Assembly: GCF_014280195.1 (NCBI RefSeq)
Contig: NZ_CP047960.1
Location: forward strand, 420,001-452,000
DNA from: Synechococcus sp. A15-24
Lineage (GTDB): Bacteria; Cyanobacteriota; Cyanobacteriia; PCC-6307; Cyanobiaceae
Reading direction: 5' to 3'
Length of the DNA stretch: 32,000 nucleotides
Shown: positions 4,981-23,571 of the stretch, one piece after another
Layout: every line of letters starts with the position of its first letter
Numbering within the stretch: the first letter of the stretch is position 1
The notes under the pieces: model-generated
The model's database searches: none
The model's input: only the letters and a program-made list of their open reading frames with translations
Told to the model about the DNA's origin: nothing
Made by a program: the position numbers and the translations under genes

Positions 4981-4995
4981 TAAAGCTTCAACTGC

Positions 4996-6552: not shown

Positions 6553-6855
6553 ATGGCCGCTGATCACGCGCTTCTCAAAGAAGTCGCATTGGAGCTGTGG
6601 AACACGACCAAGAAACTGCGGCCTGGGCTGCCGAAGGCGCCTCGCGCTCAGCTTGTTCTCAAAGCCCTGATGATCATTGGTGATGTCAGTGATCAACTGG
6701 AAGCTGCCATGGTCCTTGGGCTGATCGCCGACCAGGAGCCGGATGATGAGACCGAGCAGCTGGAGGATGGGGAAGACAAAACTGTCGAGCAAGACGAGAG
6801 CGACAACAGCCGGTCGACGCCGCGGGTTGTGCGCAAGCGCTCTGGTTCTCGCTGA
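6553..6855 (+). CDS. Hypothetical acidic protein (100 aa)
   Basis: ATG start and an acidic tail (EPDDETEQLEDGEDKTVEQDESD). No recognisable motif. An antisense ORF of similar size exists, so the coding call is weak. Confidence 0.3.
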   Translation: MAADHALLKEVALELWNTTKKLRPGLPKAPRAQLVLKALMIIGDVSDQLEAAMVLGLIADQEPDDETEQLEDGEDKTVEQDESDNSRSTPRVVRKRSGSR

Positions 6856-6898
6856 AGTGATTCATCTCTCCCCACTTGATCAGGGTGAGGGAGATTGA

Positions 6899-7603
6899 TC
6901 AGTTGAGCTGACCGCGACTGAGATGGTCTAGGTCGATATCGCTGTAAAACAGCTTCAGATCGTTGTCATAGCGATCAGCGACGAGATGGACGAGTCCTGA
7001 GTCTTCGAAGTACCGAACGACGTCGTTGTGATCGTCACCTCGACGACGATTCTTTTCGGGAAGATTGCCGAGAGTTGGCAATCGTTCTTGTCTCAAGCGT
7101 CGTTGCAACTGTTGCCAATCGCTCTCCATGGTTTCCAGGCGTCCAATGAAACTGGGGATGAGTTGACCATCGAGGCAAAGGATGTTGCTTTGAGGTAGCA
7201 GATGCACATCAAGGTCAGCATCGCTCGTCGTCGCAATGCATTCCAGAAAAGCTGAAAAAGCCATGCCGTGCTTCAGTCCCATGGCTTGCATTGGCCCAGG
7301 GACGTCATCCAATTCCAAAATCTTGTTGTTGTAGGCGGATACCAGTCGATCAAATGGATTGCGCACGAAGCTGAAGCTGAAGTGCGTGCCACGGCACATG
7401 CGTGCGGAGTGATTGTCCACCATGGAGGTCTCTCCATGGGTGCCTTTGCTCCAGAACGCGTCCGAGGTGGTGCGTAATCCCTTCTCGGGTGAAGTCGTCA
7501 GTAACCGGTAGAGACAAGCTTTGATCGAGCTGTTCGCAACTTTTGGGACTCGGCCATAAAGCAGAGGCAGGTCGCGAAACTGAATGAAATGACGCTCGCT
7601 CAC
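6899..7603 (-). CDS. Sulfotransferase, Sulfotransfer_2-like (carbohydrate sulfotransferase type)
   Basis: LLYGRVPKVANSSIK (5'-PSB-like loop, compare vPKvgsTt) and SFVRNPFDRLVSAYNNK (3'-PB-like RNP.dR..S). It is a paralog of 8439-9215. Its GTG start overlaps the upstream stop (GTGA). Confidence 0.8.
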   Translation of the reverse strand: MSERHFIQFRDLPLLYGRVPKVANSSIKACLYRLLTTSPEKGLRTTSDAFWSKGTHGETSMVDNHSARMCRGTHFSFSFVRNPFDRLVSAYNNKILELDDVPGPMQAMGLKHGMAFSAFLECIATTSDADLDVHLLPQSNILCLDGQLIPSFIGRLETMESDWQQLQRRLRQERLPTLGNLPEKNRRRGDDHNDVVRYFEDSGLVHLVADRYDNDLKLFYSDIDLDHLSRGQLN

Positions 7604-8442
7604 AGGTCCCAGTAATCGCTGGGTTTTCCCATATATGCCAGCATTTGTAGGCTGTCAGGGCGGATACGTCGCAGAACTCGGCGTTTCAATCCGTCGTTCC
7701 ACTGTGGTTTCTCAACGTGACCTCGCCCTTTGTCTCCGGCCTGATTTTCTTTGGGCAGTTGACCATTGGCGTCTAAAAGTCTCTTAACCCTTGGTTTGAC
7801 GCCAAGAAAGTGCATCATGCTGCGTAGTGAACGCCGGGGTGAGCTGAGGAGATCTTCGAAGGTCATGCAATAAATCTGGTCATCTGGGTAAAAACGACGG
7901 AAGGCAGATAGGCGCTGGTAGTACATCGAGCAGCCAACAATCAGCTTGCGCAGGTGGCGGTCACGCATCAGTTCGCTGAAGTCAGCGCAGTCTGGATTGC
8001 GACCTCGGTAGTGACGCCATTGGGACACAATTCGGTCTAGCGGGTGACGAACGATATAAATCAATTTGAGATCTGGCAGGTATCGATGCATTAACTCTGG
8101 TGTTCGACTAAAGGAGTGCAGGCCACTGGCGTACATCGTGCTGCCTTCTCCCCTCAACGGAAAATCTTTGCCCTTTCTGAATCTCGAGGCATACCAGTCC
8201 CAGCCCTTTTTGTAATAACGACCGAAGAATTTGGGCTCCTTGGGTTTGCTGATGAAGACGTCTGGATGTTGCGGCAGGATTGTTGTGAGGGTTGTTGTGG
8301 CAGATTTGGCGGCGCCAATAACGATGAAATTGGGGAGAGAATCATGATGCTGAGCTACGATTTCGGCATGCTTGCCGCGAAGTCCAATGCGGATCAATTT
8401 TATGGAACTCGAGTTGGATGTCATATCAAATGTGTTGATCAA
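7600..8442 (-). CDS. Sulfotransferase, Sulfotransfer_1/3-like (P-loop-type PAPS binding)
   Basis: FIVIGAAKSATTTL (5'-PSB G..KsGTT-like) and IVRHPLDRIVSQW (3'-PB R.P.DR..S). The start is ambiguous: TTG at 8442 or ATG at 8424. Confidence 0.8.
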   Translation of the reverse strand: MINTFDMTSNSSSIKLIRIGLRGKHAEIVAQHHDSLPNFIVIGAAKSATTTLTTILPQHPDVFISKPKEPKFFGRYYKKGWDWYASRFRKGKDFPLRGEGSTMYASGLHSFSRTPELMHRYLPDLKLIYIVRHPLDRIVSQWRHYRGRNPDCADFSELMRDRHLRKLIVGCSMYYQRLSAFRRFYPDDQIYCMTFEDLLSSPRRSLRSMMHFLGVKPRVKRLLDANGQLPKENQAGDKGRGHVEKPQWNDGLKRRVLRRIRPDSLQMLAYMGKPSDYWDL

Positions 8443-9215
8443 GCATTTTGTTTTGTGCGTTGACGCTTCTTGGCCTTGACCACGCCTCGTTGGAGAGGGG
8501 GTAGCTTGTTAAGTTGATGGCCGTCGAGCAGGGCGTCGACGCTGTAGTCACCATAGAAGTGCTTGAAATCCTCTTCATAGCGTTCGATGACTCTGTCAAT
8601 CAGCGCTGCGGAATGGAACAGCACGCGAATATCACTACGCCCTTCGCGACGGACATTTTTCTGTGGGATGGCCCCAAGCGTGGGGAGACCCTCCAATTTC
8701 ATCCGGCGACGTAAGCGTCTCCAATGATCATTCATATGTTCCATGCGCCCGACAAATTTGGGGACGAGTTTGTTCGCACAAAGCAACATCTCGGCCTGCG
8801 GACGAACATGGTTGTCCATCAGCTCAGGATCGGACTTGCAGACAATTTCGATGAAATGATCAAAGGCCATGCCGTGGTGGAGGCCCATTGTTTTCATGGG
8901 CATCGGCACATCCTCAATTTCCAGAATCTTGTTGTTGTAGGCGGCTACTAGCCGGTCGAACGGATTACGAACAAAGCTGAAACTGAAGTGGCTAGAACGC
9001 AGTCGTCTGGCCTGCTGAGGAGTGACCAACTGGGTCTCACCATGGGTGTTTTCACGCCAGAATCGATCAGCAGTCGTTTTGATCCCTCCATCGGGACGAT
9101 TGGACAACAGTTTGCACAGCGTGGTTTTGATCGAGGAGTTGGCCACTTTCGGGACGCGCCCGTACAACAGCGGAATGTCCCGAAACAGGATGAAGTGCCG
9201 AGGCGACTTGCTCAT
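8439..9215 (-). CDS. Sulfotransferase, Sulfotransfer_2-like, paralog of 6899-7603
   Basis: LLYGRVPKVANSSIK and SFVRNPFDRLVAAYNNK. It shares an identical 20-nt string AATCTTGTTGTTGTAGGCGG with the paralog. It has a basic C-terminal tail KAKKRQRTKQNA and an ATGA overlap with the neuB stop. Confidence 0.8.
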   Translation of the reverse strand: MSKSPRHFILFRDIPLLYGRVPKVANSSIKTTLCKLLSNRPDGGIKTTADRFWRENTHGETQLVTPQQARRLRSSHFSFSFVRNPFDRLVAAYNNKILEIEDVPMPMKTMGLHHGMAFDHFIEIVCKSDPELMDNHVRPQAEMLLCANKLVPKFVGRMEHMNDHWRRLRRRMKLEGLPTLGAIPQKNVRREGRSDIRVLFHSAALIDRVIERYEEDFKHFYGDYSVDALLDGHQLNKLPPLQRGVVKAKKRQRTKQNA

Positions 9216-11476
9216 GCCGTCGCAGCTGCTTCGAGTAGTTCGAGGGCCAGCCAGGCAGCCTCACCCCCGTTTTTATGACCCTGCCAGATCTCGGGGATAA
9301 ACGAGGCCTTGGGGCAATGGTGATGAATCTGCTCGAACAGCTGCACCCAGTCGATGTCACCATCGTGAATTTGTAACCCTTCACCGTCCACATCCTTGGC
9401 ATCCGCCAGATGCAGGTGGGCTGTGAACGGCAGGATCTGATCGAGGAACTGACGAAATGGAATGTGTTGATGATTGCAGGCGAGTTTTGAGTGGGAGACG
9501 TCTAGGCAGACCCGCATGCCCTGCTCTTCACAGAACTGGCGGATGAAATCCTGGTCCACGAACAGGTTGTGAAAGCGTTGCCCACCGAAGTGCCAGGGAA
9601 AGGGGGGCATCGTCTGGGGAATGATCTCTACTTCGCCAGCGGTGTTGAGTTGCTGCAAGCTCGCAATCAATCGCTCGCGCAGGGGCTCACGCTCGTTGCG
9701 GTTGAGGTGATGGTGTTCAGAGAAGCCGCCCACATTGGTCACCAGCAACACCGGATCTGGGCATTGGAAGCGAGTCCTCAGATCCCTGGAGATGTCGATT
9801 ACACGCTGCAGTTCGGCGATCGAGTGGTCCCGATAGATCGAGTCCTCCGTGCAGAGGTCCAAGGTGTGGTCGCCGGCGAATAGCTCCGGTGCGTGAACCA
9901 CCAGGCCGATGCCTTGCCGATCCGGAAGGACCTGATTGAGGTCAACTTCCAGATCTTTGTAGCTGAGGTGGATCTCCACCAGATCGAGGTTGCTTACATC
10001 AGAAAAGACCTTGATGTCGTGATATCGAACGGGCAGACCAAACGGTTGTTTGAAGCGGTAGTGGCGTGGAGTCGCCGCCGGCGTTTCCAGATCGGATGGG
10101 AAGAACACCTCTCCCTGAGCCTTGGCCACGGGTAAGCGCCGACCGATCAGATCTTTCAGCCGGTTGGGTTGCAGACCCTGGCCCGGGCTCTGGATGCGCA
10201 CCATCGCTTCGGTGATCTCCGTCCCGGCCGGCACATCACATGCAGCCACGAGGCTTTTGGCCAGCACCTCACGGTTCATCATCTCGCCCTGGCTGATGCT
10301 GCGTTCGCCGCCCTGGCCCATGGATTCCTCCACCCGCCGGATGCCTTGCATCATCTGTGCGAATTCATCAGGCAACAGGCTCACTTTGTGGTCGTTGCCC
10401 TCCATGCCCCGATCGATGGTGATGTGTTTTTCGATCACCGAGGCCCCCATCGCCACCGCCGCGATCGGCACCTCAATCCCCCGCTCGTGGCCCGAATAGC
10501 CCACTGGTGCATCCGCCAGTTCCCGCAGACGTTCCAGGTAGCGCAGGTTCACGTCCTTGAACGGCGTGGGATAGGTGGAATTGCAGTGCAACAGCACGTA
10601 ATTCGCCCCTTCCTGCTGCAGATGACGGATGCCGGAGCGGATCTCCAGTTCGCTGGCCATACCGGTGGAACAGATCAGCGGTTTGCCGGTGGCGGCCAAC
10701 TGGCTGATCAACGCGTGGTTGGTGAAATCGGCGGAGGCCACCTTGAACCCCTCCATGCCCCAGCCATTCAGCTTCTCCAGGCTGGTCTCATCCCAGGGGG
10801 TGCACAGCGGCACGAGCCCTTTTGAGGCGGCGTAGTCGAAACAGCGGAACAACTCATCGTCGCTCAGCTGGAACCGTTCCAGCAGATCCAGGGTGTACTG
10901 GGTCCCCAGATCCGAGGCCATGTCATTGCTGTTGCCGGCGTTGCTGTACAGCTTCGACATGTCCCGCATCTGGAACTTGGCGCAGTCCGCACCAGCCGCA
11001 TGGACGGCATCAATCAGCTGAAGCGCTATTGCAACATCACCGTTGTGATTGTTGCCGATTTCGGCAATCACGAAACTGGGCTCTCCATCACCGATTCGGC
11101 GGGAGCCAAGCTGCAAACCGTCTGTGGCTGGTAACGCGACCGCCACGATCCGGCCGTGGCTGTCCAGCAATGGCAGGGCAATGATCCGCGACGTCAGCAG
11201 ACCTGCAAGTTCTGCAGGAGGCGTGCCCTCAGCAGCGTTGCGGCAGTCGGGGTTCATCGCCGCCGTTACCGGACGGTTCAAATCGATGTCACCGCAACTT
11301 GCAATCCAGCGACGGAAATCGCCATCGGTGAGAACACCCTGCAAGATGCCGGACTCCGACACCACAAAAATCAGCCGCGACTGATTGGCGGTGATTTTGC
11401 TGAGGGCGGAGAGGATCGTGTCTTCAGCGAATACGACGAACTGCGTGAAGTTCCTCTCGATCTGGATCCCCTTCAC
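9212..11476 (-). CDS. neuB: Nonulosonic (sialic-acid-like) acid synthase fusion: CBS pair + NeuB + SAF + xylose-isomerase-like TIM barrel
   Basis: N-terminus is CBS-like (ILQGVLTDGDFRRW). The NeuB core is FVIAEIGNNHNGDVAIALQLIDAVHAAGADCAKFQ. The SAF region is LVAACDVPAGTEITEAMVRIQSPGQGL. The C-terminal roughly 265 aa (about 9215-10009) has AP_endonuc_2/TIM-barrel-like HAPE...DVSH...HLAD...EIW blocks. GTG start. Confidence 0.85.
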   Translation of the reverse strand: MKGIQIERNFTQFVVFAEDTILSALSKITANQSRLIFVVSESGILQGVLTDGDFRRWIASCGDIDLNRPVTAAMNPDCRNAAEGTPPAELAGLLTSRIIALPLLDSHGRIVAVALPATDGLQLGSRRIGDGEPSFVIAEIGNNHNGDVAIALQLIDAVHAAGADCAKFQMRDMSKLYSNAGNSNDMASDLGTQYTLDLLERFQLSDDELFRCFDYAASKGLVPLCTPWDETSLEKLNGWGMEGFKVASADFTNHALISQLAATGKPLICSTGMASELEIRSGIRHLQQEGANYVLLHCNSTYPTPFKDVNLRYLERLRELADAPVGYSGHERGIEVPIAAVAMGASVIEKHITIDRGMEGNDHKVSLLPDEFAQMMQGIRRVEESMGQGGERSISQGEMMNREVLAKSLVAACDVPAGTEITEAMVRIQSPGQGLQPNRLKDLIGRRLPVAKAQGEVFFPSDLETPAATPRHYRFKQPFGLPVRYHDIKVFSDVSNLDLVEIHLSYKDLEVDLNQVLPDRQGIGLVVHAPELFAGDHTLDLCTEDSIYRDHSIAELQRVIDISRDLRTRFQCPDPVLLVTNVGGFSEHHHLNRNEREPLRERLIASLQQLNTAGEVEIIPQTMPPFPWHFGGQRFHNLFVDQDFIRQFCEEQGMRVCLDVSHSKLACNHQHIPFRQFLDQILPFTAHLHLADAKDVDGEGLQIHDGDIDWVQLFEQIHHHCPKASFIPEIWQGHKNGGEAAWLALELLEAAATA

Positions 11477-11514
11477 AGTTCGCCCCGCAGGTGCCTAAGC
11501 AGAACCAGTGGACA

Positions 11515-12828
11515 CTACCCCACGTCCCTGTAAGTCAGGCTCAGCAGCAGGCGCCTGATGATCCGGTTCCGTTGCTGCACAGCCCGTGAGCGGCGAGCCA
11601 CATTGCGATGGGTCGGTCGCATCAGGCTCCCGAGTTGCAACAGGCTCTGTGCTTCCTGCCAATTCTTTTGACGGATGGCTCGCTCAGCGTCGCGTCGCAG
11701 CTGCGTGAAGCTGAGATTGGCGTTGGAAAGATATCCCGATGTTGTGCTGAGGCGTTCAGGTGGATCGGCACGCAGCTGGCGTAGGGCCTCGATCAGCTCC
11801 ACAGGGTCGAGATTTGTGCCGTAGCCCATCCAAGCCAGCCAGTCGGCGTCTGGCGAGGGCAGTGAATGATCAAGAGCATCAAGGTCCTCGACCTCATCAA
11901 GGCAGCGCCAAACGCCCGATCCCGCGAAGACATGGCTGCCGTTGGCAGGATTGATGCCGAAGTCGGCTATCACCAGGGGCCTGCAGCCCATATCCAATGC
12001 GTCGAAAAAGGCGGTGGATGAAATGGTGGCCATCAGCCTGGCCTGACGCAGCAGGTCGGGCAAAGCCCGGTAGTCGAATTTCAGGTTGTCGGGGGGGTGG
12101 CCAAGGGTCTGCAGCAATGTTGTGCTGATGTGGTCTTTGATGCTGTGGAAGGTTGTCTCTCCAGGGGCAATACGCGGTTTGATCAACACCTCCCAGTCCG
12201 GGGAACGCCGGGCAAGGTCCGCCAAAATCCGCACCATCTCAGCGCGGTCAATGGGGTTTGAAGGCATCACCACCTGTTCCGCGAACACCAGTTGCTTGCG
12301 CCTCTGTTGTTGGTCGAGGAGCTGATCATCTGAGATCTCCTGGCGGTGCAATCCGGTGAGAACCGTGCGCTGACCGGCAAACGGACTTCCCTCCAGCATT
12401 CGGTCCAGCGCCTCACGATCCCGTGGGCCACTGAGGCAGACGAGGTCGTAACCCAGCCGCCAGCTCATGCCTTCCATGAACTTCTCCAGCACTACGCCGT
12501 TGAAGCCGCAGAACAACAGCGGTCGCTCACGACTGGGCAGCAATCCCAACGCCAGTCGAAAATCACTGACCTTGCTGCCGGTGAGGTACACACCAATGGC
12601 ATTGAACTGGCGCAGCTCGGGGTGAGTCAGCAATTGCCCCATGTCCAGCCGCCAAAGGTCACCAAGGGCAGCAGCCCGCTGCAGAATCGAATCGGGTGTT
12701 CCCTCACGCGGAATGGCGTTGATGGTGACCTGAATGTTGAGGTCCGACGGGAAGCGACATAGCGCTTCACAGGCCAACAATTGGCTGTCGCTGTCGCCGA
12801 TCAGCAACAGTTTGAACGGACCATTCAT
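11515..12828 (-). CDS. Paralog 1 of 3: putative CMP-sugar-dependent GT-B glycosyltransferase (polysialyltransferase/KpsS-like motif layout)
   Basis: VLIKPRIAPGE, then about 55 aa, then MATISSTAFFDALDMG. This mirrors hhKxHP ... SS/T..h.EA in KpsS, KpsC and NeuS. Clear paralogy to 12825-13880 and 13877-15208. It has a basic amphipathic C-terminal tail. Existence of the CDS is solid; the function is inferred. Confidence 0.6.
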   Translation of the reverse strand: MNGPFKLLLIGDSDSQLLACEALCRFPSDLNIQVTINAIPREGTPDSILQRAAALGDLWRLDMGQLLTHPELRQFNAIGVYLTGSKVSDFRLALGLLPSRERPLLFCGFNGVVLEKFMEGMSWRLGYDLVCLSGPRDREALDRMLEGSPFAGQRTVLTGLHRQEISDDQLLDQQQRRKQLVFAEQVVMPSNPIDRAEMVRILADLARRSPDWEVLIKPRIAPGETTFHSIKDHISTTLLQTLGHPPDNLKFDYRALPDLLRQARLMATISSTAFFDALDMGCRPLVIADFGINPANGSHVFAGSGVWRCLDEVEDLDALDHSLPSPDADWLAWMGYGTNLDPVELIEALRQLRADPPERLSTTSGYLSNANLSFTQLRRDAERAIRQKNWQEAQSLLQLGSLMRPTHRNVARRSRAVQQRNRIIRRLLLSLTYRDVG

Positions 12829-13880
12829 GGCAGCAACTCCACCAGGCGGCGGATCAGGCGCGCGGCGCCGTCATGCACCCCCCAGCCCATGGACTGCAGC
12901 CAGGACGTATTGACGGGTGGCAAACCCAGCAGTTGATCCATGTGGTCGATCGACTGCAGGCGATGCATCAGTCCGCTGCCGAAGAACGTCGTTGTGTCTT
13001 GATCGGAGTGGATGCCGTAATCGCCGATGAGCAGGGTTGGTCGGCCCCAGGCCATAGCAGTCAGGCTCCAGGGGGAGCTGACGCTGAGACAGGCGCTGCA
13101 GCTGGCCAGCTGGCTCAGGAGCTGACCAGGTGCACCAAACACCAGGTTGTCGGGGAAGGTCCAGTCGCTGGATTTGAACTTGGAGATCCAGGGCTGACCT
13201 TTCTCCCAGGCGTGGTCGCGTTGGATCACAATCGACCACTCCGGGGACGTTTCAGCCCAGCGGATCAATTGCTGCAGCAACTGTGCCTTGGCACCGATCT
13301 GGGTGGGGATGCCCTCCTGAACCAGAGCGAGCAGGGTATGGGGCGGTTTTGCGGTTCCGCCTTTGAGAGCTCCGAGGGGAGGACGTTCCGGAGAGAACCA
13401 ATGCCCGATCGCCACGATTGATGGACTGGCCACGCTCTCGGGCCAGAACTGTGTGATCGCCTCAAGCTCCCGTCGCTGACGATCCCCTGGCACCACCAAG
13501 AGATCACAGCATTGGCGGTCGCTCAGCTGATGAACCAGGCTGTCACCAAGGGAGGCCTGGAGAGGACCGCTGAACACCACAGCTGGCTGCACACCACGCT
13601 GCCGGGCGAGGTGTCGGTGAGCATGGGTAAAGAGCTCAAGGTGGTCGCTGCGACGGATGAACAACCCAACGGCGCTGGCGGACTCCAACAGCTCATGGCC
13701 CAGCAGATCCATCAGGGTCAGTGGGATTTGCGGGGTGACGGAAGGCAGAGGGCTGTCTCGGCTTGTGGACAGCGCCGGTCCAATGGTCAGGCAGGACTGA
13801 CCGCGCTGCTCAAGCTGCTGTTGCAGCAGCTGGCAGGCCATAGCGCTGCGGTCGTCATCACTGACCAGAAGGATTGTCAT
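12825..13880 (-). CDS. Paralog 2 of 3: divergent member (IVIQRDHAWEKG instead of KP[HR])
   Basis: SPEWSIVIQRDH...CLSVSSPWSLTAMAWGRPTLLIGDYG aligns with paralogs 1 and 3. I prefer ATG 13880 (MTILLVSDDD), which gives an ATGA overlap with the upstream stop, over GTG 13895. Confidence 0.55.
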   Translation of the reverse strand: MTILLVSDDDRSAMACQLLQQQLEQRGQSCLTIGPALSTSRDSPLPSVTPQIPLTLMDLLGHELLESASAVGLFIRRSDHLELFTHAHRHLARQRGVQPAVVFSGPLQASLGDSLVHQLSDRQCCDLLVVPGDRQRRELEAITQFWPESVASPSIVAIGHWFSPERPPLGALKGGTAKPPHTLLALVQEGIPTQIGAKAQLLQQLIRWAETSPEWSIVIQRDHAWEKGQPWISKFKSSDWTFPDNLVFGAPGQLLSQLASCSACLSVSSPWSLTAMAWGRPTLLIGDYGIHSDQDTTTFFGSGLMHRLQSIDHMDQLLGLPPVNTSWLQSMGWGVHDGAARLIRRLVELLP

Positions 13881-15208: not shown

Positions 15209-15210
15209 AA

Positions 15211-15891: not shown

Positions 15892-15925
15892 CAGAGAGGA
15901 TTCAGGTCGCTCCCCCTCCTACCCG

Positions 15926-17911
15926 ATGATTCAGCGCTTCGGGGTGCCGGAGACCGGTCTACTGGCCCATCGCACGGTGCCGGCGCTGCTGGCTCCGGCG
16001 CAGTTGCTGCCGGGCCGGCGGCGGGATGTGGAGGTGTTGCTGGCCTGGGGGCGACGCCCCAGTGCCCGGCGGGTCGAGCGCTTGGGGCGGCGCTGGCAGC
16101 TACCGGTGTGGCATTTGGAGGATGGTCTGCTGCGCTCCTTGGCCAAGGGCCGCCAGCATCCGCCGCTGGCGCTGTTGGTTGATGACCTGGGGGTTCATTT
16201 CGATGCCACTCAGCCCAGCCGGATGGAGCAGCGGATTCAGCAACCGCTGACCCCTGCACAACACAACCGGGCCCGTGAACTTCAGCAGCGGTGGTGTGCA
16301 CAGCGGCTGAGCAAGCTCAACCCCGCCCGGGAATCACCGGCTCCAGCCGAGCCTTTTGTGCTGGTTGTGGACCAGTCCGCCGGCGACTGCTCCATCGGCC
16401 TCGGGCAAGCCGGGCCGGAGAGCTTCCGGCGCATGTTGCAGGAGGCGCTGCGGGATCAGCCGGACTGTCTGGCGGTGGTGAAGGTGCATCCGGATGTGAT
16501 CCGGGGCCGCGCCCGGGGCCATTTCCGCCGGCAGGATCTGCAGCACCCGCGCATCCGCGTTTGCGCTGACGGATTGCACCCTGCCGCCCTGTTGGAGCAG
16601 GCCCAGGCGGTGTATGTGGTGACCTCCCAGATGGGCTTCGAAGCACTGCTGTGGGGGCGAACGGTCCACTGCTTTGGCATGCCCTTCTATGCCGGTTGGG
16701 GGCTGACCCATGATCGTCTGCCGGCTCCGGTCCGTCGGGGGCAGATGGTGCCTTTGGAAGCGCTGGTGCATGCAGTGCTGGTGGCGGGCACCCGTTGCGT
16801 GGATCCCCATCACCATCAGCCCTGCCCGATCGAAACGTTGATGGATGCCATCGGGCTGCAACGCCGCCTGCAGGTGGCGGATCCTCAGCGGGTGGAAGCC
16901 TTCGGGTTTACGCCCTGGAAGCAACGCAGCCTCAAGCGCTTTCTGGCCGGCAGTGAGCTGCGCTTCCGCCTGCCGCGGGCGTGGCCGGGGCGGCGGGCGG
17001 AGGCCGTGGCGGTGTGGGGGCGGCGGGCGCGACCACGCCTGCTGGCCACGGCGCGCCAACGGTCGCTGCCGCTGCTGCAGGTGGAGGACGGCTTCCTGCG
17101 TTCGGTGGGGCTGGGGGCGGATCTGATCGATCCGATCTCCTGGGTGGTGGACCTCCGGGGGATGTATTACGACGCCACGGAGAGCAGCGATCTGGAGCAT
17201 CTTCTGGCCACCGCTGACTGGAGTAAGCCGCAGTTGCAGCGGGCTGAGGCCCTGCGCCAACAGCTGGTGGAGCAGGCGATCACCAAGTACAACCTGTCGG
17301 GAGATGGGTGGCAGCGCCCCAAGGGGGTCCGGCGGGTGGTGTTGGTGGTGGGCCAGGTGGAAAGCGACGCTTCAATCCGCTACGGCGCTCCCGGGATCAC
17401 CACCAACCTGGCTCTGCTGGAGGCTGTTCGGGCCGCTGAACCGGATGCTTTTGTGGTTTACAAGCCCCATCCGGATGTGGTGGCGGGCCTCTGCCGCTCT
17501 GGGGAAGGGGAAGAGCGGGCTGGGCAGGTCTGCGATTACCTGTTGGTTGATGGTTCGATCCATGCCCTGTTTGAGCAGGTGGATGCCCTGCATGTGCTCA
17601 CCTCACTGGCGGGATTTGAGGCGCTGCTGCGGGGGGTGGAGGTGCACTGCTGGGGACTGCCCTTTTATTCGGGTTGGGATCTGACGCATGACCGGTTGTC
17701 GTCTCCCCGGCGGGGGCGGCCGCTGCCATTGGCGGCTTTGGTGCATGCCGCCTTGATTGATTACCCCCGCTACGTCAGCCGTCACAGCGGTTGGTTCATC
17801 ACTCCAGAGCAAGCCATTGAGGAGCTGGTGGCCTGGCGGGATGCACCTGCAGCTCCACGCACCCTGGTGCAGGCCCTGTTCCGCCACTGGGGGCGACTGC
17901 GCCGCCGCTGA
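15926..17911 (+). CDS. kpsC: KpsC-like capsule beta-Kdo transferase (tandem Capsule_synth domains)
   Basis: Colinear with E. coli KpsC as I recall it. Shared blocks are MIQRFG.. start, LAWGRRPSA, WHLEDGLLRS, VVKVHPDV, VYVVTSQMGFEALLWG..CFGMPFYAGWGLT. The second repeat has LQVEDGFLRSVGLGADL, YYDATESSDLE, KYNL, VGQVESDASI, VVYKPHPDV, VLTSLAGFEALLRG..CWGLPFYSGWDLT. The track ORF start at 15431 is an antisense-overlap artefact; ATG 15926 is in frame. Confidence 0.9.
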   Translation: MIQRFGVPETGLLAHRTVPALLAPAQLLPGRRRDVEVLLAWGRRPSARRVERLGRRWQLPVWHLEDGLLRSLAKGRQHPPLALLVDDLGVHFDATQPSRMEQRIQQPLTPAQHNRARELQQRWCAQRLSKLNPARESPAPAEPFVLVVDQSAGDCSIGLGQAGPESFRRMLQEALRDQPDCLAVVKVHPDVIRGRARGHFRRQDLQHPRIRVCADGLHPAALLEQAQAVYVVTSQMGFEALLWGRTVHCFGMPFYAGWGLTHDRLPAPVRRGQMVPLEALVHAVLVAGTRCVDPHHHQPCPIETLMDAIGLQRRLQVADPQRVEAFGFTPWKQRSLKRFLAGSELRFRLPRAWPGRRAEAVAVWGRRARPRLLATARQRSLPLLQVEDGFLRSVGLGADLIDPISWVVDLRGMYYDATESSDLEHLLATADWSKPQLQRAEALRQQLVEQAITKYNLSGDGWQRPKGVRRVVLVVGQVESDASIRYGAPGITTNLALLEAVRAAEPDAFVVYKPHPDVVAGLCRSGEGEERAGQVCDYLLVDGSIHALFEQVDALHVLTSLAGFEALLRGVEVHCWGLPFYSGWDLTHDRLSSPRRGRPLPLAALVHAALIDYPRYVSRHSGWFITPEQAIEELVAWRDAPAAPRTLVQALFRHWGRLRRR

Positions 17912-17931
17912 GGCGTGCCAGGATCTTCTCA

Positions 17932-19959
17932 GTGCTGGACGGCGATTTGGGCAGGGGACGGGCGCCGGCGCTGGTGCAGGTGCGCATCGAAGGACCGGTT
18001 CTGCTGCTGATGGGCCCGATCGGGCTGTTCTTTGCCCGCTTCAGCCGATACCTGCAGGGATGTGGCATCCCGGTCACCAAGGTGCGTTTTCCTTTGCGGG
18101 AATTCGGCTTCCCTTCGGACGTGTGTGTGCCGTTTCAAAAGCCGATGGAGGCCTGGCGGCCCTTCCTGCGTCAGCTGCTGCAGGAGCGCGGCATCCGACA
18201 CATCTTCATGTATGGGGACTTCATCATTCCCCACCGGATTGCCATCGAGGAGGCTCGCGACCTGGGGGTGGAAGCCTGGGTGTTCGAACTCGGATACCTG
18301 CGCCCCAACTACGTGACCCTGGAGCGGGATCGGGTCAACGCCCGCTCCAACCTCAACCAACCCGCGGCCTTCTACCGCAACCTGCCACCGGTGGATCAGC
18401 TGCCGCCGGAGATTGTGCTGGATCCGGGCTGGCGCTGGCGCAAGGCCTGGAAGGCTCCCACGTTCATTCAACACGCCTTCACCCGCTACCCGATCATTGA
18501 GGGGGAGCACAAACTGCAGCCCAATCCGGGCTTCCTCTGGTGCCAGCTGCGCGGCAGCTGGCGTTACTGGCTGTACCGCTGGCAGGAGCGCAACCTGAAG
18601 CGCCGGCTGCTGGAGCACCTGTCCTTCTTCCTGGCGGTGCTGCAGGTGTCCAGTGATTCCCAGATCCAGCTGGGGTCGCCCTACCGCGGCATGCACGACT
18701 TCATCGAAGACGTGATCCGCTCCTTTGCGGACCATGCCCACAGCTCCGACCATTTGGCTTTCAAGCACCACCCGCGGGACCGGGGCTACAACCATTACGG
18801 CAGCCTGATTGGTGTGCTGGCGCGCCGCTACGGCGTCTGCGGGCGGGTTCACTACTTCCACGACGGTGCCCTCAGCCGCTACCTGCGCACCTGCCGCGGT
18901 GTGATCACGGTGAACAGCACGGTGGGCCTCCAGGCCCTGTTCCATGCGGTGCCCACCAAAACCATGGGCAATACCTTTTACAACCTGGAGGGGCTGACGG
19001 ATCAGAAGCCCCTGGATGGGTTTTGGCGGGACCCCCAGCCCAGTGACCGAGCGCTGTTCTGGCGGTTTTACCACCACCTGGTGATGACCACCCAAGTGAA
19101 CGGCAATTTCGACGGGGACTTCCCCTTCCGGATCACCTTCCCGATCGGCCTTGAGGCTCGCCAGCTCGAACCGCAGCCGCAGTTGCCGCCGCTGCGTCCA
19201 CGGCCACGGATAAACCCCCTGCTGCTGCCGGTGCGGGTGCTGGCTCGCCTGGGTTGGGCAGCCCTGGGGTTTGTCTTGTACGGCCTGCAGCTGCCAGCGG
19301 TGCTGCTCCGCCGATCGGACTGGGCGGCTCAGCTGATGACCTGGGCGTCTGCTGTGGCGTTGCGGGCGCTTGGGGTGCAGGTGGTGGTTGATGACAGCCA
19401 GCCCAGTGAGCCAGCTGTGGTGCCCCTGGTGCATATCTTCAACCACCGCAGCCCCTGTGATGGCCTGGTGATTCAGGGGGTGTTGCGCCTGCCGGGCATG
19501 ACCACGGCGCAGCTGCATCTGAAGTGGGTGCTGCCTGGCTATGCGGCTGCGGCCCGCAATGCCGGCTCGGCCGTTCTCGATCATCGCCAGCCCAGTTCGC
19601 GGCTGGAGGGAATGATGCGGGCCTCAGCGTTGTTGCGCGATCACGGCCAGATCATGCTGGCCCCCAACGGCTCCCTGGTGACGCCGATCGAACAGCGGGT
19701 CTCCCCCAGCGCCTGGATGCTGGCTCAGCATTACAACGGTTCGGTTGTGCCCTGGCTGTTCCGCTACGACGGGCTGGAGGGGGCCGTGGGAGCCCGGTAC
19801 AGGCCTTGGGCGCTGCTGCTCAGCCGGTTGACGGCTCCACTTGGAACGATTCACTGTCGCCGCGGGCGCTCCCAGGATCTGGTTCTGCCTAAGGATCCTC
19901 GGGACCGGGAGGGGTTTAGCCGGGCTGTGCAGGCGTACTACCAGCAAGTACAAGACTGA
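17932..19959 (+). CDS. kpsS: KpsS-like Kdo transferase fused to a C-terminal PlsC/LPLAT-type acyltransferase domain
   Basis: KpsS blocks are LLLMGPIGLFF, FELGYLRPNYVT, FFLAVLQVSSDSQI, LAFKHHPRDRG, VITVNSTVGLQALF, MTTQVNGNF. These are followed by a Pro-rich linker and a hydrophobic segment. Next come the HX4D box FNHRSPCD (His codon 19444-19446, Asp codon 19459-19461) and APNGS (19660-19674) in the position of the FPEGT block. GTG start. Confidence 0.85.
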   Translation: MLDGDLGRGRAPALVQVRIEGPVLLLMGPIGLFFARFSRYLQGCGIPVTKVRFPLREFGFPSDVCVPFQKPMEAWRPFLRQLLQERGIRHIFMYGDFIIPHRIAIEEARDLGVEAWVFELGYLRPNYVTLERDRVNARSNLNQPAAFYRNLPPVDQLPPEIVLDPGWRWRKAWKAPTFIQHAFTRYPIIEGEHKLQPNPGFLWCQLRGSWRYWLYRWQERNLKRRLLEHLSFFLAVLQVSSDSQIQLGSPYRGMHDFIEDVIRSFADHAHSSDHLAFKHHPRDRGYNHYGSLIGVLARRYGVCGRVHYFHDGALSRYLRTCRGVITVNSTVGLQALFHAVPTKTMGNTFYNLEGLTDQKPLDGFWRDPQPSDRALFWRFYHHLVMTTQVNGNFDGDFPFRITFPIGLEARQLEPQPQLPPLRPRPRINPLLLPVRVLARLGWAALGFVLYGLQLPAVLLRRSDWAAQLMTWASAVALRALGVQVVVDDSQPSEPAVVPLVHIFNHRSPCDGLVIQGVLRLPGMTTAQLHLKWVLPGYAAAARNAGSAVLDHRQPSSRLEGMMRASALLRDHGQIMLAPNGSLVTPIEQRVSPSAWMLAQHYNGSVVPWLFRYDGLEGAVGARYRPWALLLSRLTAPLGTIHCRRGRSQDLVLPKDPRDREGFSRAVQAYYQQVQD

Positions 19960-21181
19960 TGTTGTGACCGCCGAAGCCGAAGGCGTTTTTGAGCAGCAGG
20001 CGTTGGCCTTGATCAGAAGACAGCTCAACAGGACCCTGGTTGGCCACCGCCAGCTCCACCTCAGGATCCAGGGGATCGGCATTTAGGCTGCCGGGTAACA
20101 CTCCGTGACGCAGGGCCTGCAGGGCCAGGATGGTTTCTACCGCTCCGGCGCCCCCCAGCAGATGGCCGAGTTGGCCTTTGGGGGCGCAGACCGGCAGATG
20201 ATCGGCGGCACTGCCGAGGCTGCGCCGCAATGCTCTGGCCTCCGCCAGGTCGCCGAGGCTGGTGCCGGTGGCATGGGCCTGAACGCCGCAGAGGTCCGAG
20301 GCGCTCACATCCGCCCGGCGCAGGGCATCATCAATGGCACGGCTGGCCTGTAGCCCCTGGGGTTCGGGGGAGACGATGTGATGAGCATCGCTGCTGCTGC
20401 CGCTGGCCAGCAACCAACCCAGATCCGCTCCTGCTGGCGTGTCCCGCTGCCGCATCAGGGCCAGGACGCCGGCGCCTTCGGAGAGCACAAAGCCATCTCT
20501 ATTGAGCCCATAGGGACGGGAGGCCTGATCGGGGGCGTCGTTGCGGCCGGAGAGGGCGCGCATGGCAGCAAAGCCCACAAGCCCCAGTCGGTTCACTGGT
20601 GCTTCGCTGCCTCCGGCCAGCACCAGATCGGCGCGGTCGTCGTTGAGCAGCATCTGGCCCAGCATCAACGCTTCGGCGCCCGAGGCGCAGGCGGACACCG
20701 GGGTGTGGGCACCGCCGAGCAGACCGAACTCGATGGCGACCTGACCAGCGGCAGCATCGGGGATCAGCATCGGCACGGTGAGGGGGTTGACCCGGCTCGG
20801 TCCCCCTGCGCTGAGTTGCGTGTGCTGCTCGTGCATCGTGGCGAGGCCGCCGATGCCGGTGCCGATCACCACAGCGATCCGACTTGGATCGAGCCCTTGT
20901 GTGATGGACCCGGCCATGGCCCAGGCCTGCCGCGCGGCCACCAGGGCAAGCTGGGCACAGCGATCGGAGCGGCGGCGGAGCAGGGGCGGCAGGCTGTCGA
21001 GGGCCCTCGTTGGGACGCAACCGGCCAGGCGCACGGGCAGATCCTCGGTCCAGGCAGCCTGGAGGGTCTGGATGCCGCTGTGACCAGCGATCACCGACGT
21101 CCAGGTGCTGTCGGCATCGGCACCAAGGGGGTTGAGGGAACCCCAACCCACCACTGCGGTGGGCTCAGCTCGGGAAGCCAT
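19916..21181 (-). CDS. Beta-ketoacyl-ACP synthase (FabF/FabB-like elongating KAS, Cys-His-His)
   Basis: Active-site contexts are PVSACASGAEAL, VQAHATGTSLGD, KGQLGHLLGGAG, and the C-terminal NAFGFGGHN. The 3' end overlaps the convergent kpsS-fusion gene by 44 nt. Confidence 0.85.
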   Translation of the reverse strand: MASRAEPTAVVGWGSLNPLGADADSTWTSVIAGHSGIQTLQAAWTEDLPVRLAGCVPTRALDSLPPLLRRRSDRCAQLALVAARQAWAMAGSITQGLDPSRIAVVIGTGIGGLATMHEQHTQLSAGGPSRVNPLTVPMLIPDAAAGQVAIEFGLLGGAHTPVSACASGAEALMLGQMLLNDDRADLVLAGGSEAPVNRLGLVGFAAMRALSGRNDAPDQASRPYGLNRDGFVLSEGAGVLALMRQRDTPAGADLGWLLASGSSSDAHHIVSPEPQGLQASRAIDDALRRADVSASDLCGVQAHATGTSLGDLAEARALRRSLGSAADHLPVCAPKGQLGHLLGGAGAVETILALQALRHGVLPGSLNADPLDPEVELAVANQGPVELSSDQGQRLLLKNAFGFGGHNISLVLAGSTPAQPG

Positions 21182-21446
21182 CGGCCGGGCTGGGGCTCAA
21201 GGACTCCAGGTGCTGCTGAATGTCCGCAACGGTGCGGAACCGGAGTAGTTCCTCCTCTTTAATCCGGATTCCGAAGTTGGTGTCCGCCTCGATCAGGATT
21301 TCGTAGAACCCAAGGGAATCAATTCCCACGTCCTCCATCAGCCGGGCGTTAGGGGTGATCACGGCTGGGTCGGCGCCGGAGATGCGATGCAGGATCTCGA
21401 TCAGCCGTCCCTGCAGCTCTTGCTTGTCAGGGCAGCTCTCTCCCAA
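21165..21446 (-). CDS. Acyl carrier protein (dedicated, locus-encoded)
   Basis: The phosphopantetheine attachment context is DVGIDSLGFYEI. Size is about 93 aa. TTG start, with no upstream ATG. It overlaps the KAS start by 17 nt. Confidence 0.7.
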   Translation of the reverse strand: MGESCPDKQELQGRLIEILHRISGADPAVITPNARLMEDVGIDSLGFYEILIEADTNFGIRIKEEELLRFRTVADIQQHLESLSPSPADGFPS

Positions 21447-21491
21447 CGCACAACCTCTTATTGAGTAGCCAAAGTACCAGTGATGGTGGGA

Positions 21492-22403
21492 TTACACGTC
21501 GCCTCGGTACCAGCTGAAGCGTTGGTAGACGGGCTGATGGGGGAGGTCGATGAAGAGTGCCAGTCGTTCTTGAGGGAGTTTCCTCAGATCTGCAGCCATC
21601 AGGATTTCAGTGATCTGGTTGAAGTCCAGGGCCAGGGACAGATCACAGACTTCCGCCTGCATCAAGTTGACGTACTGACGCAGCAGCACCGGTAATCGGA
21701 AATTGTCGGAGAGGGTCTGGCGGATCTCCTGTTCCAGGGCCTGGATGTGGCCGCTGGGATGGGGGGTGTCATCAGCGCGAATGCCTGGGACGGGATGGCG
21801 TGGGGCCGGTAAGGGGGTGTCAAGGCGCCGATAGGGGGGACGCAGCAGGGCGCTGAGGAAAGCGCTGTTCACGGCGTCGCTGTGGGCGAAGTGGTTGTAG
21901 GAGACCAACCCGTGCAGCAACTCGTAACCGCTGCGGGCAGCGATCAGCAGACCGCCGCGGAACAGGGCCATCAGCGAGTGGGGCTGGCGTTGGAAGCGTT
22001 CCGCCAGGGCGACCCTGCCGATTTCGAGGTGGTTGGTGCGGCTGGCCAGGTCCGCCTTGATGCCGGGATAGACGTGTTCGAGATAAGAGCCGCTGCTGCC
22101 GGGTAAGGGGGTGGCGCCGACGGGGATGAACTGCAGGCGGGCGGAGCCGGCGAGATCGCCGCTGCTGCGTTCCACCAGCAGCAGATGGTCGTAATCGGGA
22201 TCGCGACCATCCAGGTCCCGCTCGTCTCCCGACCCGGACAACTGCTTGCGGTACGTTGATTCGCGAAGCTGTCCAACGGCATCGGCCACAGCGTAGAAGG
22301 CGCTGCCTGCGATCAGGTGCAGATCGAGGTCGTCAATCGTGAGTAAGCGTGTTTCCGTCGCCGAGGCCACGTCGGAAGGGATGGACGGACCAGACAGCGT
22401 CAT
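21492..22403 (-). CDS. GNAT-fold N-acyltransferase of the OlsB / hemolysin-like (Acetyltransf_5) type
   Basis: The blocks DGRDPDYDHLLLVE, LEIGRVALAE and LPVLLRQYVNLMQAEV resemble the OlsB-family blocks D.FD..C.HLLV, ELSRF.V and PPLLKGYLRLGA (from memory). It is first in an operon with ACP and KAS. Confidence 0.65.
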   Translation of the reverse strand: MTLSGPSIPSDVASATETRLLTIDDLDLHLIAGSAFYAVADAVGQLRESTYRKQLSGSGDERDLDGRDPDYDHLLLVERSSGDLAGSARLQFIPVGATPLPGSSGSYLEHVYPGIKADLASRTNHLEIGRVALAERFQRQPHSLMALFRGGLLIAARSGYELLHGLVSYNHFAHSDAVNSAFLSALLRPPYRRLDTPLPAPRHPVPGIRADDTPHPSGHIQALEQEIRQTLSDNFRLPVLLRQYVNLMQAEVCDLSLALDFNQITEILMAADLRKLPQERLALFIDLPHQPVYQRFSWYRGDV

Positions 22404-22458
22404 CGTTGTACCTAACTGTCTCAGTCTGGGGGCAGATTAGACCCGCTGGTTCGAGCTT

Positions 22459-23571
22459 TTGTCGTTTCCCACTGCCTTGATCCCTTTCTCTTCGCGCTCT
22501 GCTGCTGTGGTCTGCACCCGGCTGATCGCCGGTCTGGCGGCCACTGCGACGTGCTTGGTGGTCGGCCCGCTTGCAGCTGTTGCAGATCCAGTGACCTCTG
22601 CCAGAAGCTCACCGAGCAGCGGCCAAGAGGTGTTTCGCTACCGACTGGGACCTGGCGACAGTCTGGCTATGTCGGTATTCAAGATGAGCGGTTACCAGGC
22701 AAATGTGAAGGTGCTGAGCGATGGCACCATCAACCTTCCGCGCATCGGCACCATTGAGGTCTGGGGACTGACTTTAGAAGAAGCGCGTCAGCGCATCAGC
22801 GCGGCCTATGAGGTCTTTCTGCGTCGGCCGATCGTCTACCTCGATCTGGTGACCGCCCGTCCGGTGAAGGTCACAGTGACCGGTGAAGTGGAACGTCCAG
22901 GGGTGTTCAGCCTGCCGACCCAAGCGGAGGGGGGCTGGCCGACGCTGGTGGATGTGGTGCAGAAAGCTGGTGGTGTGTCCGCCAGTGGTGATCTGTCCCG
23001 TATTGAAGTGCTGCGTCCTGCCGTGCGCCGCGGTGGCTCGATGCGTCGTTATCAATTCGATTACCTCACGGTGCTTCGCGAGGGTGGGCATGCCCCGAAC
23101 CCCCTGATTTACGACGGCGACAGCATTCGCTTGTACAAAAACGAAGAAGTCGATAACGCTGACCTGATCACGACGGCGGCCTCCAACTTCGCTCCCGACA
23201 CGATCCGCGTGAACGTGATCGGGGAAGTGGCTAAGCCAGGCATCCAGCAGGTGCCATCCAATGCGCCGTTGTCCCAGGCGATCTTTGCGTCGGGCGGCAT
23301 CACCCGTCGCGGCAGCATCAGCACAGTGGAATTGGTGCGTATGGATGGCGAGGGTGAGCCGACGGTCAAAGTGATGAGCTTTGCCCCCAGCGCCGTGCTG
23401 AGCAGCCCGACTAACCCACCGCTCCGTCAAGGAGATGTGATTGTGGTGAACCGCTCAGCTCTCGCGAGGGTGACCGATGGCCTGACCGATGCTTTTTCAC
23501 CGCTCACGCCGATCGTCAATGCCGCCTCGATTTTCCGGATCCTTGGCTTGCCCTCAGTGATTGGCAACTGA
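22459..23571 (+). CDS. Polysaccharide export protein (Wza/KpsD-like: Poly_export + SLBB domains)
   Basis: N-terminal signal-like segment (LIAGLAATATCLVVGPLAAVA). The Poly_export motif is YRLGPGDSLAMSVF...LSDGTINLPRIGTIEVWGLT. SLBB-like repeats are VTVTGEVERPGVF and VNVIGEVAKPGIQ. The start is TTG 22459 or GTG 22507. Confidence 0.8.
   Translation: MSFPTALIPFSSRSAAVVCTRLIAGLAATATCLVVGPLAAVADPVTSARSSPSSGQEVFRYRLGPGDSLAMSVFKMSGYQANVKVLSDGTINLPRIGTIEVWGLTLEEARQRISAAYEVFLRRPIVYLDLVTARPVKVTVTGEVERPGVFSLPTQAEGGWPTLVDVVQKAGGVSASGDLSRIEVLRPAVRRGGSMRRYQFDYLTVLREGGHAPNPLIYDGDSIRLYKNEEVDNADLITTAASNFAPDTIRVNVIGEVAKPGIQQVPSNAPLSQAIFASGGITRRGSISTVELVRMDGEGEPTVKVMSFAPSAVLSSPTNPPLRQGDVIVVNRSALARVTDGLTDAFSPLTPIVNAASIFRILGLPSVIGN

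Follow-up and report, generated by a model that had tools for sequence, protein, structure and literature searches.

In Escherichia coli the known anchor of the capsule is lyso-phosphatidylglycerol, without dedicated lipid genes. In rhizobia, the rkp-1 and rkp-3 regions combine KpsS/KpsC-like genes with dedicated fatty-acid/polyketide-type and acyl carrier protein (ACP) genes that are thought to make the lipid carrier. These lipid genes encode the large, polyketide-synthase-like RkpA and the alpha-oxoamine-synthase-like RkpG, and the pseudaminic acid of the rhizobial K-antigen is made by a separate module. [quoted passage not shown] In cyanobacteria, synechan from the xss cluster of Synechocystis PCC 6803 is a characterised sulfated exopolysaccharide (PMC8205485), and Pereira et al. 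(2015) remarked no more than that KpsS and KpsC are restricted in their distribution. Doré et al. (2020, PMC7522525; 2023, PMC10119275) listed a 'Kps cluster' in Synechococcus of clade III and WPC1 and mapped its biogeography. Here we analysed this locus in Synechococcus sp. A15-24, in a window of 32,000 nucleotides (NZ_CP047960.1, positions 420,001 to 452,000), where it extends from position 6899 to 23571.

We read the locus as the biosynthetic half of a surface polysaccharide system that depends on an ATP-binding cassette (ABC) transporter and is of the Kps type ('group 2/3-like'). The predicted product is lipid-anchored, sulfated and contains an unusual ulosonic acid. We give this reading a probability of about 0.65. 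The locus consists of 14 genes, and by the coordinates of the open reading frames (ORFs) only 194 bp of its 16,673 bp are intergenic, in agreement with a first-pass annotation made from the sequence alone, which had described 16.7 kb with almost no intergenic DNA. A gene string on the minus strand, running from 15891 to 6899, begins with the gene for a NeuA-like cytidylyltransferase and continues with those for three DUF6716 paralogs, a NeuB fusion protein of 754 amino acids and three sulfotransferases. It is followed by kpsC and kpsS on the plus strand, then by the convergent genes for a beta-ketoacyl-ACP synthase II (KAS II), an ACP and an N-acyltransferase, and last by the divergent gene for an outer-membrane polysaccharide exporter (OPX), which stops 25 bp short of purB. 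Gene families were assigned by hidden Markov model (HMM) searches against Pfam and NCBIfam, and folds by AlphaFold2 (AF2) models and Foldseek. Each family that the first-pass annotation had named was recovered in these searches. The host, which it had taken for a picocyanobacterium, is Synechococcus sp. A15-24 of clade III; the FtsW protein of the window is identical to QNJ28212.1 of this strain.

Related loci were collected by scanning species-representative genomes with a profile of the KpsS-acyltransferase fusion (KpsS-AT) described below. Matches were found in 126 genomes, 80 loci were kept, and the window proteins were mapped onto 87 related loci. The 80 kept loci were all picocyanobacterial, except for a few metagenome-assembled genomes under other taxon names that are probably mislabelled. 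We distinguished class A, with a KpsS-AT identity of at least 59% (marine Synechococcus, Cyanobium, Vulcanococcus and Aphanothece), from class B, with an identity of about 50% (freshwater Cyanobium-like). Class A loci have the full gene order of the window, and 31 of 34 contain the whole set of five genes for NeuB, NeuA and the three DUF6716 proteins. Among the class A loci, 34 of 35 adjoin purB, and they range from those of marine Synechococcus to those of freshwater Cyanobium. In class B, the order is GT2, KpsE-family, KpsT-like, KpsM-like, KpsC, KpsS-AT, OlsB-like, a 330-aa protein and OPX, and genes for NeuB, NeuA, DUF6716, KAS and ACP are absent. L033, a locus of class A, keeps the genes for KpsC, KpsS-AT, KAS, ACP, the OlsB-like protein and OPX, with GT2/GT1 glycosyltransferases in place of the NeuB set; it also has a weak sulfotransferase-like ORF (Sulfotransfer_3, E = 0.0046, under the Pfam cut-off). 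Every related locus of sufficient length for the test had the core of KpsC, KpsS-AT, OlsB-like protein and OPX, except that KpsC was absent from 1 of 74. This constancy, together with the replacement of the NeuB set in L033 and its absence from class B, points to the arrangement of proteobacterial capsule loci, in which an invariant core is combined with a variable 'region 2'.

Retaining beta-Kdo transferases are defined by a QXXXD motif, in which the Asp is the nucleophile, and an HP motif (PMC10148158). KpsC (15926-17911, plus strand) matched Capsule_synth in four stretches with 4.4e-76 and is a beta-Kdo glycosyltransferase of two GT107 modules, with QSAGD and VHPD in the N-module and QVESD and PHPD in the C-module; these motifs are kept in 74-75 of 75 orthologs. 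KpsS (17932-19959, plus strand) matched the NCBIfam KpsS model with 2.6e-82, which is under the equivalog cut-off, and its QVSSD and HHP motifs are kept in 86-87 of 87 orthologs. The earlier placement of 15926-19959 in the KpsC/KpsS family, and with it the description of the locus as Kps-type, was upheld by both the HMM matches and the motifs. The exporter gene (22459-23571, plus strand) had been called Wza/KpsD-like, and its product matched Poly_export (7.5e-19) together with SLBB and SLBB_2; an OPX gene was present in 62 of 62 related loci. In class B loci, KpsM-like, KpsT-like and BexC/CtrB/KpsE-family (6.6e-67) genes adjoin the KpsC, KpsS-AT, OlsB-like and OPX genes, which indicates that the core works with an ABC transporter. 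For marine strains, Table S4 of Doré et al. 2020 (PMC7522525) and the dataset of Doré et al. 2023 (PMC10119275) give kpsM/E/T the same phyletic pattern as kpsC/S.

Two other class A loci, L042 (5692-7011) and L043, encode a KdsB-KdsC fusion between the NeuA-like gene and kpsC that is absent from the window. Its kdsB match reached 196.7 bits against an equivalog cut-off of 155.2. KdsB is the CMP-Kdo synthetase and KdsC the Kdo-8-phosphate phosphatase, and the fusion fits the use of CMP-Kdo for the linker and of a second CMP-sugar for the chain. In Synechococcus sp. A15-28, an extra ORF of 310 amino acids (L086, 6129-7061) lies between kpsS-AT and kpsC; it gave no Pfam match and has no counterpart in the window.

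The first-pass annotation was right in the family of KpsS and overlooked that residues ~430-675 add, behind a hydrophobic linker, a C-terminal acyltransferase domain of the PlsC type (PF01553, 1e-6). The HX4D motif of this domain is kept in 86 of 87 KpsS-AT orthologs. The N-acyltransferase (21492-22403, minus strand; 303 aa) belongs to the GNAT type (Acetyltransf_5, PF13444 5e-10) and aligned over its whole length with the C-terminal half of OlsF, which is OlsB-like (residues 304-568 of 570, NCBIfam OlsF 1.6e-14). Its gene adjoins KpsS-AT in 77 of 77 related loci. The second half of OlsF is a PlsC-type O-acyltransferase, the domain type that is fused to KpsS here. In sequence searches of the PDB, no match was returned for the OlsB-like protein or for the acyltransferase domain. 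The KAS II paralog (fabF2; 19916-21181, minus strand) carries the N and C domains of Pfam ketoacyl-synt and scored 382 bits with NCBIfam fabF, under the cut-off of 493.75, and the ACP (21165-21446, minus strand) matched NCBIfam ACP models with 7.5e-13 at best. Both are apparently dedicated proteins, and their genes are confined to class A (46/46 loci vs 0/31 in class B). All three calls made at first pass, ACP, KAS and N-acyltransferase, were confirmed by HMM; their possible role as a dedicated lipid-anchor module had not been considered. Together with the PlsC domain they look like a module dedicated to making or remodelling the lipid acceptor.

When 1.84 billion representative proteins were scanned exhaustively with HMMER, 560 KpsS relatives were returned at E≤1e-30. 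Among the best 150 of these 560, full-length matches to the fusion were found in 3-4 of the 50%-identity representative clusters, and the remaining relatives were KpsS proteins of ~400 aa or other fusions. The few full-length clusters among these best 150 suggest that the KpsS-AT fusion with its constant OlsB-like neighbour is a picocyanobacterial speciality. In other lineages, the distant KpsS relatives P0529, P0530 and P0439 are fused to an ABC-2 permease (KpsM-like), the N-terminal domain of UDP-glucose dehydrogenase and DUF2279, so KpsS appears prone to fusion with partners of the capsule pathway. A bolder and less probable reading is that the anchor is not (lyso)phosphatidylglycerol but a phosphorus-free acyloxyacyl aminolipid, which the OlsB-like enzyme and the KpsS-fused PlsC domain would make, in class A with the dedicated ACP and KAS. 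If so, KpsS would be physically coupled to the synthesis of its own acceptor. With such an anchor, and with sulfate and carboxylate in place of phosphate as the charged groups, the design of the capsule would spare phosphorus in lineages that are dominant in phosphorus-depleted oceans.

The NeuB fusion (9212-11476, minus strand; identical to QNJ28195.1 of strain A15-24) joins a CBS pair, a NeuB-type phosphoenolpyruvate (PEP)-condensing synthase, a SAF domain and a TIM barrel of AP_endonuc_2. The NeuB-family domain scored 266 bits with PF03102 (3.5e-79), where the cut-off is 22.1. The C-terminal TIM barrel was modelled by AF2 with a confidence score (pLDDT) of 86.5, and its best Foldseek matches were ketose-3-epimerase-like proteins, UlaE and YcjR, at a TM-score of ~0.65. 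It resembles ketose-3-epimerases, L-xylulose-5-phosphate 3-epimerase and 3-keto-glucoside 4-epimerase. The residues E145, D187, H215 and E257 (domain numbering) are invariant, and this E-D-H-E set is consistent with a metal site. A PDB sequence search with the barrel gave no match; from the model, the domain appears to be metal-dependent and sugar epimerase/isomerase-like. The cytidylyltransferase (15211-15891, minus strand; CTP_transf_3 2e-22; identical to QNJ28199.1) had been called NeuA, and we agree that it is a NeuA-like CMP-nonulosonate synthetase: it matched the PDB NeuA 1eyr with 1.7e-31 and KdsB with ~1e-6. A KpsU/KdsB identity was ruled out by these 25 orders of magnitude. Its top NCBIfam match was PseF with 123 bits, under the cut-off.

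The three GT-B-like paralogs described at first pass proved to be members of DUF6716 (PF20471), all on the minus strand. Paralog 1 (11515-12828) matched the family with 4.8e-52 and Capsule_synth weakly (0.0025), paralog 2 (12825-13880) with 3.7e-17 and paralog 3 (13877-15208) with 6.6e-59; the AF2 model of paralog 3 has a GT-B fold (pLDDT 83.5). They share 21-24% identity, always co-occur and are mutually homologous with 99% hhalign probability (99.3% for paralogs 2 and 3). Their combined profile aligned with the N-module of KpsC at 95.7% (E = 8.5e-9, 193 columns), whereas KpsS and KpsC, which are known homologs, reached only 79.5% in the same test. The Gln of QXXXD is kept in 112 of 115 DUF6716 sequences. 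The sole PDB profile match was the beta-Kdo transferase WbbB, at a non-significant E = 0.74. From these alignments, the DUF6716 proteins are best called divergent KpsC-related GT-B enzymes and putative glycosyltransferases. No paper with the name DUF6716 was found in a literature search.

The sulfotransferases had been counted as three, and three were found, all on the minus strand. ST_a (6899-7603, PF03567 3.5e-38, with an ortholog in A15-28) and its paralog ST_c (8439-9215, PF03567 7e-36) are Sulfotransfer_2 proteins, and ST_b (7600-8442) is a Sulfotransfer_1/3 protein (PF13469 5e-18, PF00685 3e-17). A direct repeat of 129 nt with 78% identity occurs in ST_a (7256-7384) and ST_c (8862-8990), which indicates a duplication with the Sulfotransfer_1/3 gene between the copies. 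The GC content of this segment is 0.50-0.53, as compared to 0.57-0.69 in the remaining locus. In Cyanobium usitatum str. Tous (L087, 17623-21302), two sulfotransferases are followed by a 652-aa protein and Glyco_transf_7C/61-like genes that replace the third, so the locus varies at its sulfotransferase end.

We infer the substrates, the products and the order of the steps in the pathway from the observed family memberships, catalytic motifs, folds, synteny and co-occurrence. The ACP, KAS II, the OlsB-like N-acyltransferase and the PlsC-type O-acyltransferase fused to KpsS would first make or remodel the lipid acceptor. The KpsS domain would add the first beta-Kdo, and the two-module KpsC would extend a short Kdo linker. 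The CBS-NeuB-SAF-epimerase fusion would condense PEP with a sugar, probably not N-acetylmannosamine (ManNAc). The product would be a nonulosonic or related ulosonic acid of a non-canonical kind, and its activation with CMP would fall to the NeuA-like enzyme. The three divergent KpsC-related DUF6716 enzymes may build the serotype-specific chain, and the three sulfotransferases, of the 3'-phosphoadenosine-5'-phosphosulfate (PAPS) type, may O-sulfate it. Export would then proceed through KpsM/T/E, whose genes probably lie elsewhere in the genome, and through the OPX protein of the locus.

Several observations weigh against this reading. By tblastn, KpsM/T/E genes were found neither in the window nor within ±10 kb of the class A loci. 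The locus of the window contains no gene for CMP-Kdo supply (KpsF/KpsU), and its sole cytidylyltransferase is NeuA-like; the CBS pair of the NeuB fusion aligned solely with the CBS part of KpsF/GutQ in NCBIfam. In the lipid module, the PlsC match is weak (PF01553 29 bits, cut-off 23), and the OlsB-like protein scored 53 bits, far under the OlsF cut-off of 620. The literature search returned no biochemical or genetic study of the locus and no analysis of its product.

The sugar is affected by further points of this kind. The NeuB domain stayed under the NCBIfam equivalog cut-offs, with 308.6 bits for NeuB_NnaB (399.65) and 227.4 bits for PseI (340.25), and is roughly equidistant from the NeuB, SpsE and PseI proteins of the PDB. 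At the position of Arg314 in the NeuB of Neisseria meningitidis (NmNeuB), it has a Ser (IQSPGQG) that is near-invariant in 21 orthologs. According to Joseph et al. 2013, the SAF-domain Arg314 of NmNeuB reportedly contacts the acetamido sugar and is essential. PseI (8h2c) has an Arg at this position, and the human NeuB-type enzyme, which accepts phosphorylated Man and ManNAc, is also without an equivalent in the alignment. The precursor genes NeuC, PseB/C/H/G and LegB/C/H/G gave no Pfam or NCBIfam match in the locus. A nonulosonate product, as first proposed, is plausible. Tentatively, and from the missed cut-offs, the Ser, the epimerase-like fusion and the lack of NeuC, Pse and Leg genes, the sugar may be a non-canonical ulosonic acid, possibly non-acetamido and Kdn-like.

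The DUF6716 proteins add the last of the adverse points. They lack the Asp of QXXXD, with a Pro at the +4 position in 114 of 115 sequences and a 4-residue deletion, and they lack the His of the HP motif, where 'FK-PR' is found instead. The paralog 3 model is nearest in the PDB to UDP-GlcNAc 2-epimerases and ordinary GT-B transferases, not to KpsC or WbbB. With the missing Asp and His and such a model, the donor and even the glycosyltransferase activity of these proteins stay putative. Their membership in GT107 was ruled out by the absent catalytic residues. By fold resemblance one paralog could be a NeuC-like epimerase, with no significant sequence signal (Epimerase_2, E = 0.25 for paralog 3).

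The absence of a recognisable processive polymerase, of the GT38/NeuS type or any other, from the HMM searches of the locus favours a different product: a short, defined sulfated glycolipid, in which a few ulosonic acids sit on a Kdo-lipid primer and each DUF6716 enzyme acts once. Such a lipo-oligosaccharide would also suit three distinct, always co-occurring DUF6716 paralogs and three different sulfotransferases, which could decorate specific sites. However, the OPX, KpsE and KpsMT machinery is typical of polymer export, and polymerases composed of several alternating enzymes are common in group 2 capsules. We regard the short glycolipid as unlikely, if worth keeping in mind. The acyl genes could be read differently as well, as acylating the sugars of the chain through N- or O-acyl groups, for example by an N-(3-hydroxyacyl) group on a diamino-nonulosonic acid, and not as making the anchor. 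Groups of this type occur on the sugars of some rhizobial and Legionella glycans, unusual N-acyl groups are frequent on nonulosonic acids, and the restriction of KAS and ACP to class A would agree with it. However, all 31 class B loci retain the OlsB-like gene and the PlsC domain although they have no NeuB or NeuA, and L033 retains KAS and ACP without the NeuB set. Moreover, PlsC-family enzymes act on lipid acceptors, and this domain is covalently joined to KpsS, which is the enzyme in contact with the lipid acceptor. Acylation of the chain thus appears improbable.

Ordinary lipopolysaccharide (LPS) synthesis, of core or O-antigen, instead of a separate capsule-like layer has in its favour that Kdo transferases act in LPS too and that the locus has a fixed chromosomal position; in many genomes its neighbours are the housekeeping genes purB, ccsB/resB, ccdA and ftsW. 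The first-pass annotation had reserved this explanation for a locus syntenic and invariant in all relatives. We found the locus to be syntenic where it is present but far from universal. In the strains listed by Doré et al. (2020, PMC7522525), the Kps cluster genes are absent from all Prochlorococcus and from clade I and patchy in clade II, and it follows that the locus is dispensable. In addition, KpsC and KpsS belong with the retaining beta-Kdo enzymes that serve capsule linkers and not with the WaaA type, and class B loci have KpsMTE and OPX genes. We consider an LPS locus very improbable and retain the Kps-type, ABC-transporter-dependent polysaccharide as our reading.

The gene junctions were largely as first described, with ATGA overlaps at 13877-13880, 12825-12828 and 9212-9215 and a GTGA overlap at 7600-7603; the proposed overlap at 8439-8442 reads TTGA. 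The likely start of ST_b is the ATG at 8424, which gives 274 aa in agreement with the 274-aa ortholog of strain A15-28, so the junction with ST_c is probably a gap of ~15 bp and not an overlap. The convergent 3' ends of kpsS-AT and the KAS II gene overlap by 44 bp (19916-19959). The two divergent gaps, 34 bp (15892-15925) and 55 bp (22404-22458), are too short for ordinary paired promoters, and the promoters are probably inside coding sequence.

The variable end of the locus adjoins an insertion of low GC content (0.44-0.58) at window positions 1-6898. It contains a tyrosine-integrase-like ORF (5081-6094) with a weak match to the PHROG_1 integrase (E = 1.6e-6) and none in Pfam or NCBIfam. The first-pass annotation had taken this adjacency to fit a surface-modification island, whereas by our comparison the integrase is no part of the locus. 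In strain A15-28 all 14 genes recur, the three sulfotransferases among them, and ordinary transporter genes (Mem_trans and SBP) come next; no integrase occurs within ~3 kb beyond the 14 genes and window 1-6898 has no counterpart there. Window 1-7057 gave no nucleotide match in any of the 87 related loci. The purB synteny and the comparison with A15-28 argue against a recently imported island bounded by the integrase, a reading that we rejected, and the sequence indicates that 1-6898 is a separate, strain-specific insertion to which the integrase belongs. Other ORFs of the insertion are ParA-like (964-1791), ABM monooxygenase-like (3146-3535) and metzincin-like with a Pro/Glu-rich linker (3817-4980). 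A repeat of ~60-85 nt is present in three copies, 514-598 (+), 2166-2224 (-) and 2530-2598 (-), which bracket the ParA-like gene. Its core, GCTGAAGCGCATCCCGAAGGAGCTG...CTGCTGT-loop-ACAGCAG, forms a 7-bp hairpin and gave no Rfam or tRNA match; the window as a whole contains no tRNA and no Rfam family.

Marine Synechococcus are among the most abundant phototrophs on Earth, and their cell surface governs the adsorption of phages, grazing, aggregation and the export of carbon. If only some clades (III, WPC1 and parts of II) carry a sulfated acidic capsule, it would be a major surface trait. The near-exclusive KpsS-AT fusion, always beside an OlsB-like enzyme, offers a handle on the origin of the lipid terminus in ABC-transporter-dependent capsules. 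The locus also offers candidate enzymes in the DUF6716 proteins, KpsC relatives without its nucleophile, and the NeuB-epimerase fusion may make an undescribed ulosonic acid. The Kps cluster genes are significantly rarer in low-Fe than in Fe-replete waters and are absent from CRD1, as reported in the ecological dataset of Doré et al. 2023 (PMC10119275).

The closest record of the locus is that of Doré et al. itself. In the 2023 dataset (PMC10119275), Syn-eCAG_008 comprises the genes of our window and Syn-eCAG_009 is DUF1997-kpsM-kpsE-kpsT; both lie in the island region Syn_GI125, under which strain A15-24 is listed as GI04_Syn_A15-24. The shared gene list is kpsD, N-acyltransferase, ACP, fabF2, kpsS, kpsC, neuA, a GT-like gene, two hypotheticals, neuB and a sulfotransferase, and in Table S4 of the 2020 paper (PMC7522525), kpsT/E/M/D2/C/S have a single phyletic pattern in common with the genes for the N-acyltransferase, fabF2 and the GT-like protein. 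The locus is therefore catalogued in the literature and biochemically uncharacterised. The earlier statement that this is not a characterised cyanobacterial system stands as far as biochemical studies are concerned, but the gene combination had already been listed. The literature search also returned nothing relevant on nonulosonic acids in Synechococcus or on a picocyanobacterial capsule with sulfotransferases. In the passages and tables consulted, the Doré papers deal with annotation, phyletic pattern and biogeography only and do not mention the KpsS-acyltransferase fusion, the OlsB-type N-acyltransferase, the DUF6716-KpsC kinship, the joining of NeuB to an epimerase-like domain or the class B loci from fresh water. 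New here are the purB-anchored gene order shared by marine and freshwater picocyanobacteria and the constant core with variable sugar genes. Also new are the probable kinship with KpsC of the DUF6716 proteins, which lack its catalytic Asp and His, and the NeuB without Arg314 that is joined to a domain resembling ketose-3-epimerases.

Like the E. coli group 2/3 and N. meningitidis capsule systems (K1/serogroup B polysialic acid), the locus has KpsS, a dual-module KpsC with intact QXXXD/HP motifs, NeuB/NeuA-type genes and OPX, probably with KpsMTE elsewhere in the genome, and its modular build likewise sets a core that is conserved beside a region 2 that varies. Unlike these systems, it has the KpsS-PlsC fusion, an OlsB-like core gene and, in class A, ACP and KAS; it lacks KpsF/KpsU, its transporter genes are apparently unlinked, and it encodes three sulfotransferases. 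The GT38 polysialyltransferase of E. coli K1 and N. meningitidis is missing, and the three DUF6716 enzymes are found in its place. The rkp loci likewise combine KpsS/KpsC-like genes with putative genes for the lipid carrier, but they have RkpA/RkpG and not an OlsB-like protein with a PlsC domain, and no known sulfotransferases. Ornithine-lipid synthesis by OlsB and OlsA, or by OlsF, uses the same pair of enzyme types, a GNAT N-acyltransferase and an HX4D PlsC-type O-acyltransferase; here, however, the O-acyltransferase is joined to KpsS and not to the N-acyltransferase, and the scores are far under the equivalog cut-offs. We know of no aminolipid from picocyanobacteria. OlsB homologues are reported mainly in Nostocales (review PMC12971839). 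The xss cluster is also a cyanobacterial surface polysaccharide locus with sulfotransferases but, unlike the A15-24 locus, has no KpsC/S, NeuB/NeuA or lipid module; synechan is said to be made from ordinary hexoses by a Wzx/Wzy-type pathway. In conclusion, four features set the locus apart from the characterised systems: the lipid module, the glycosyltransferases, the fused synthase and the sulfation.

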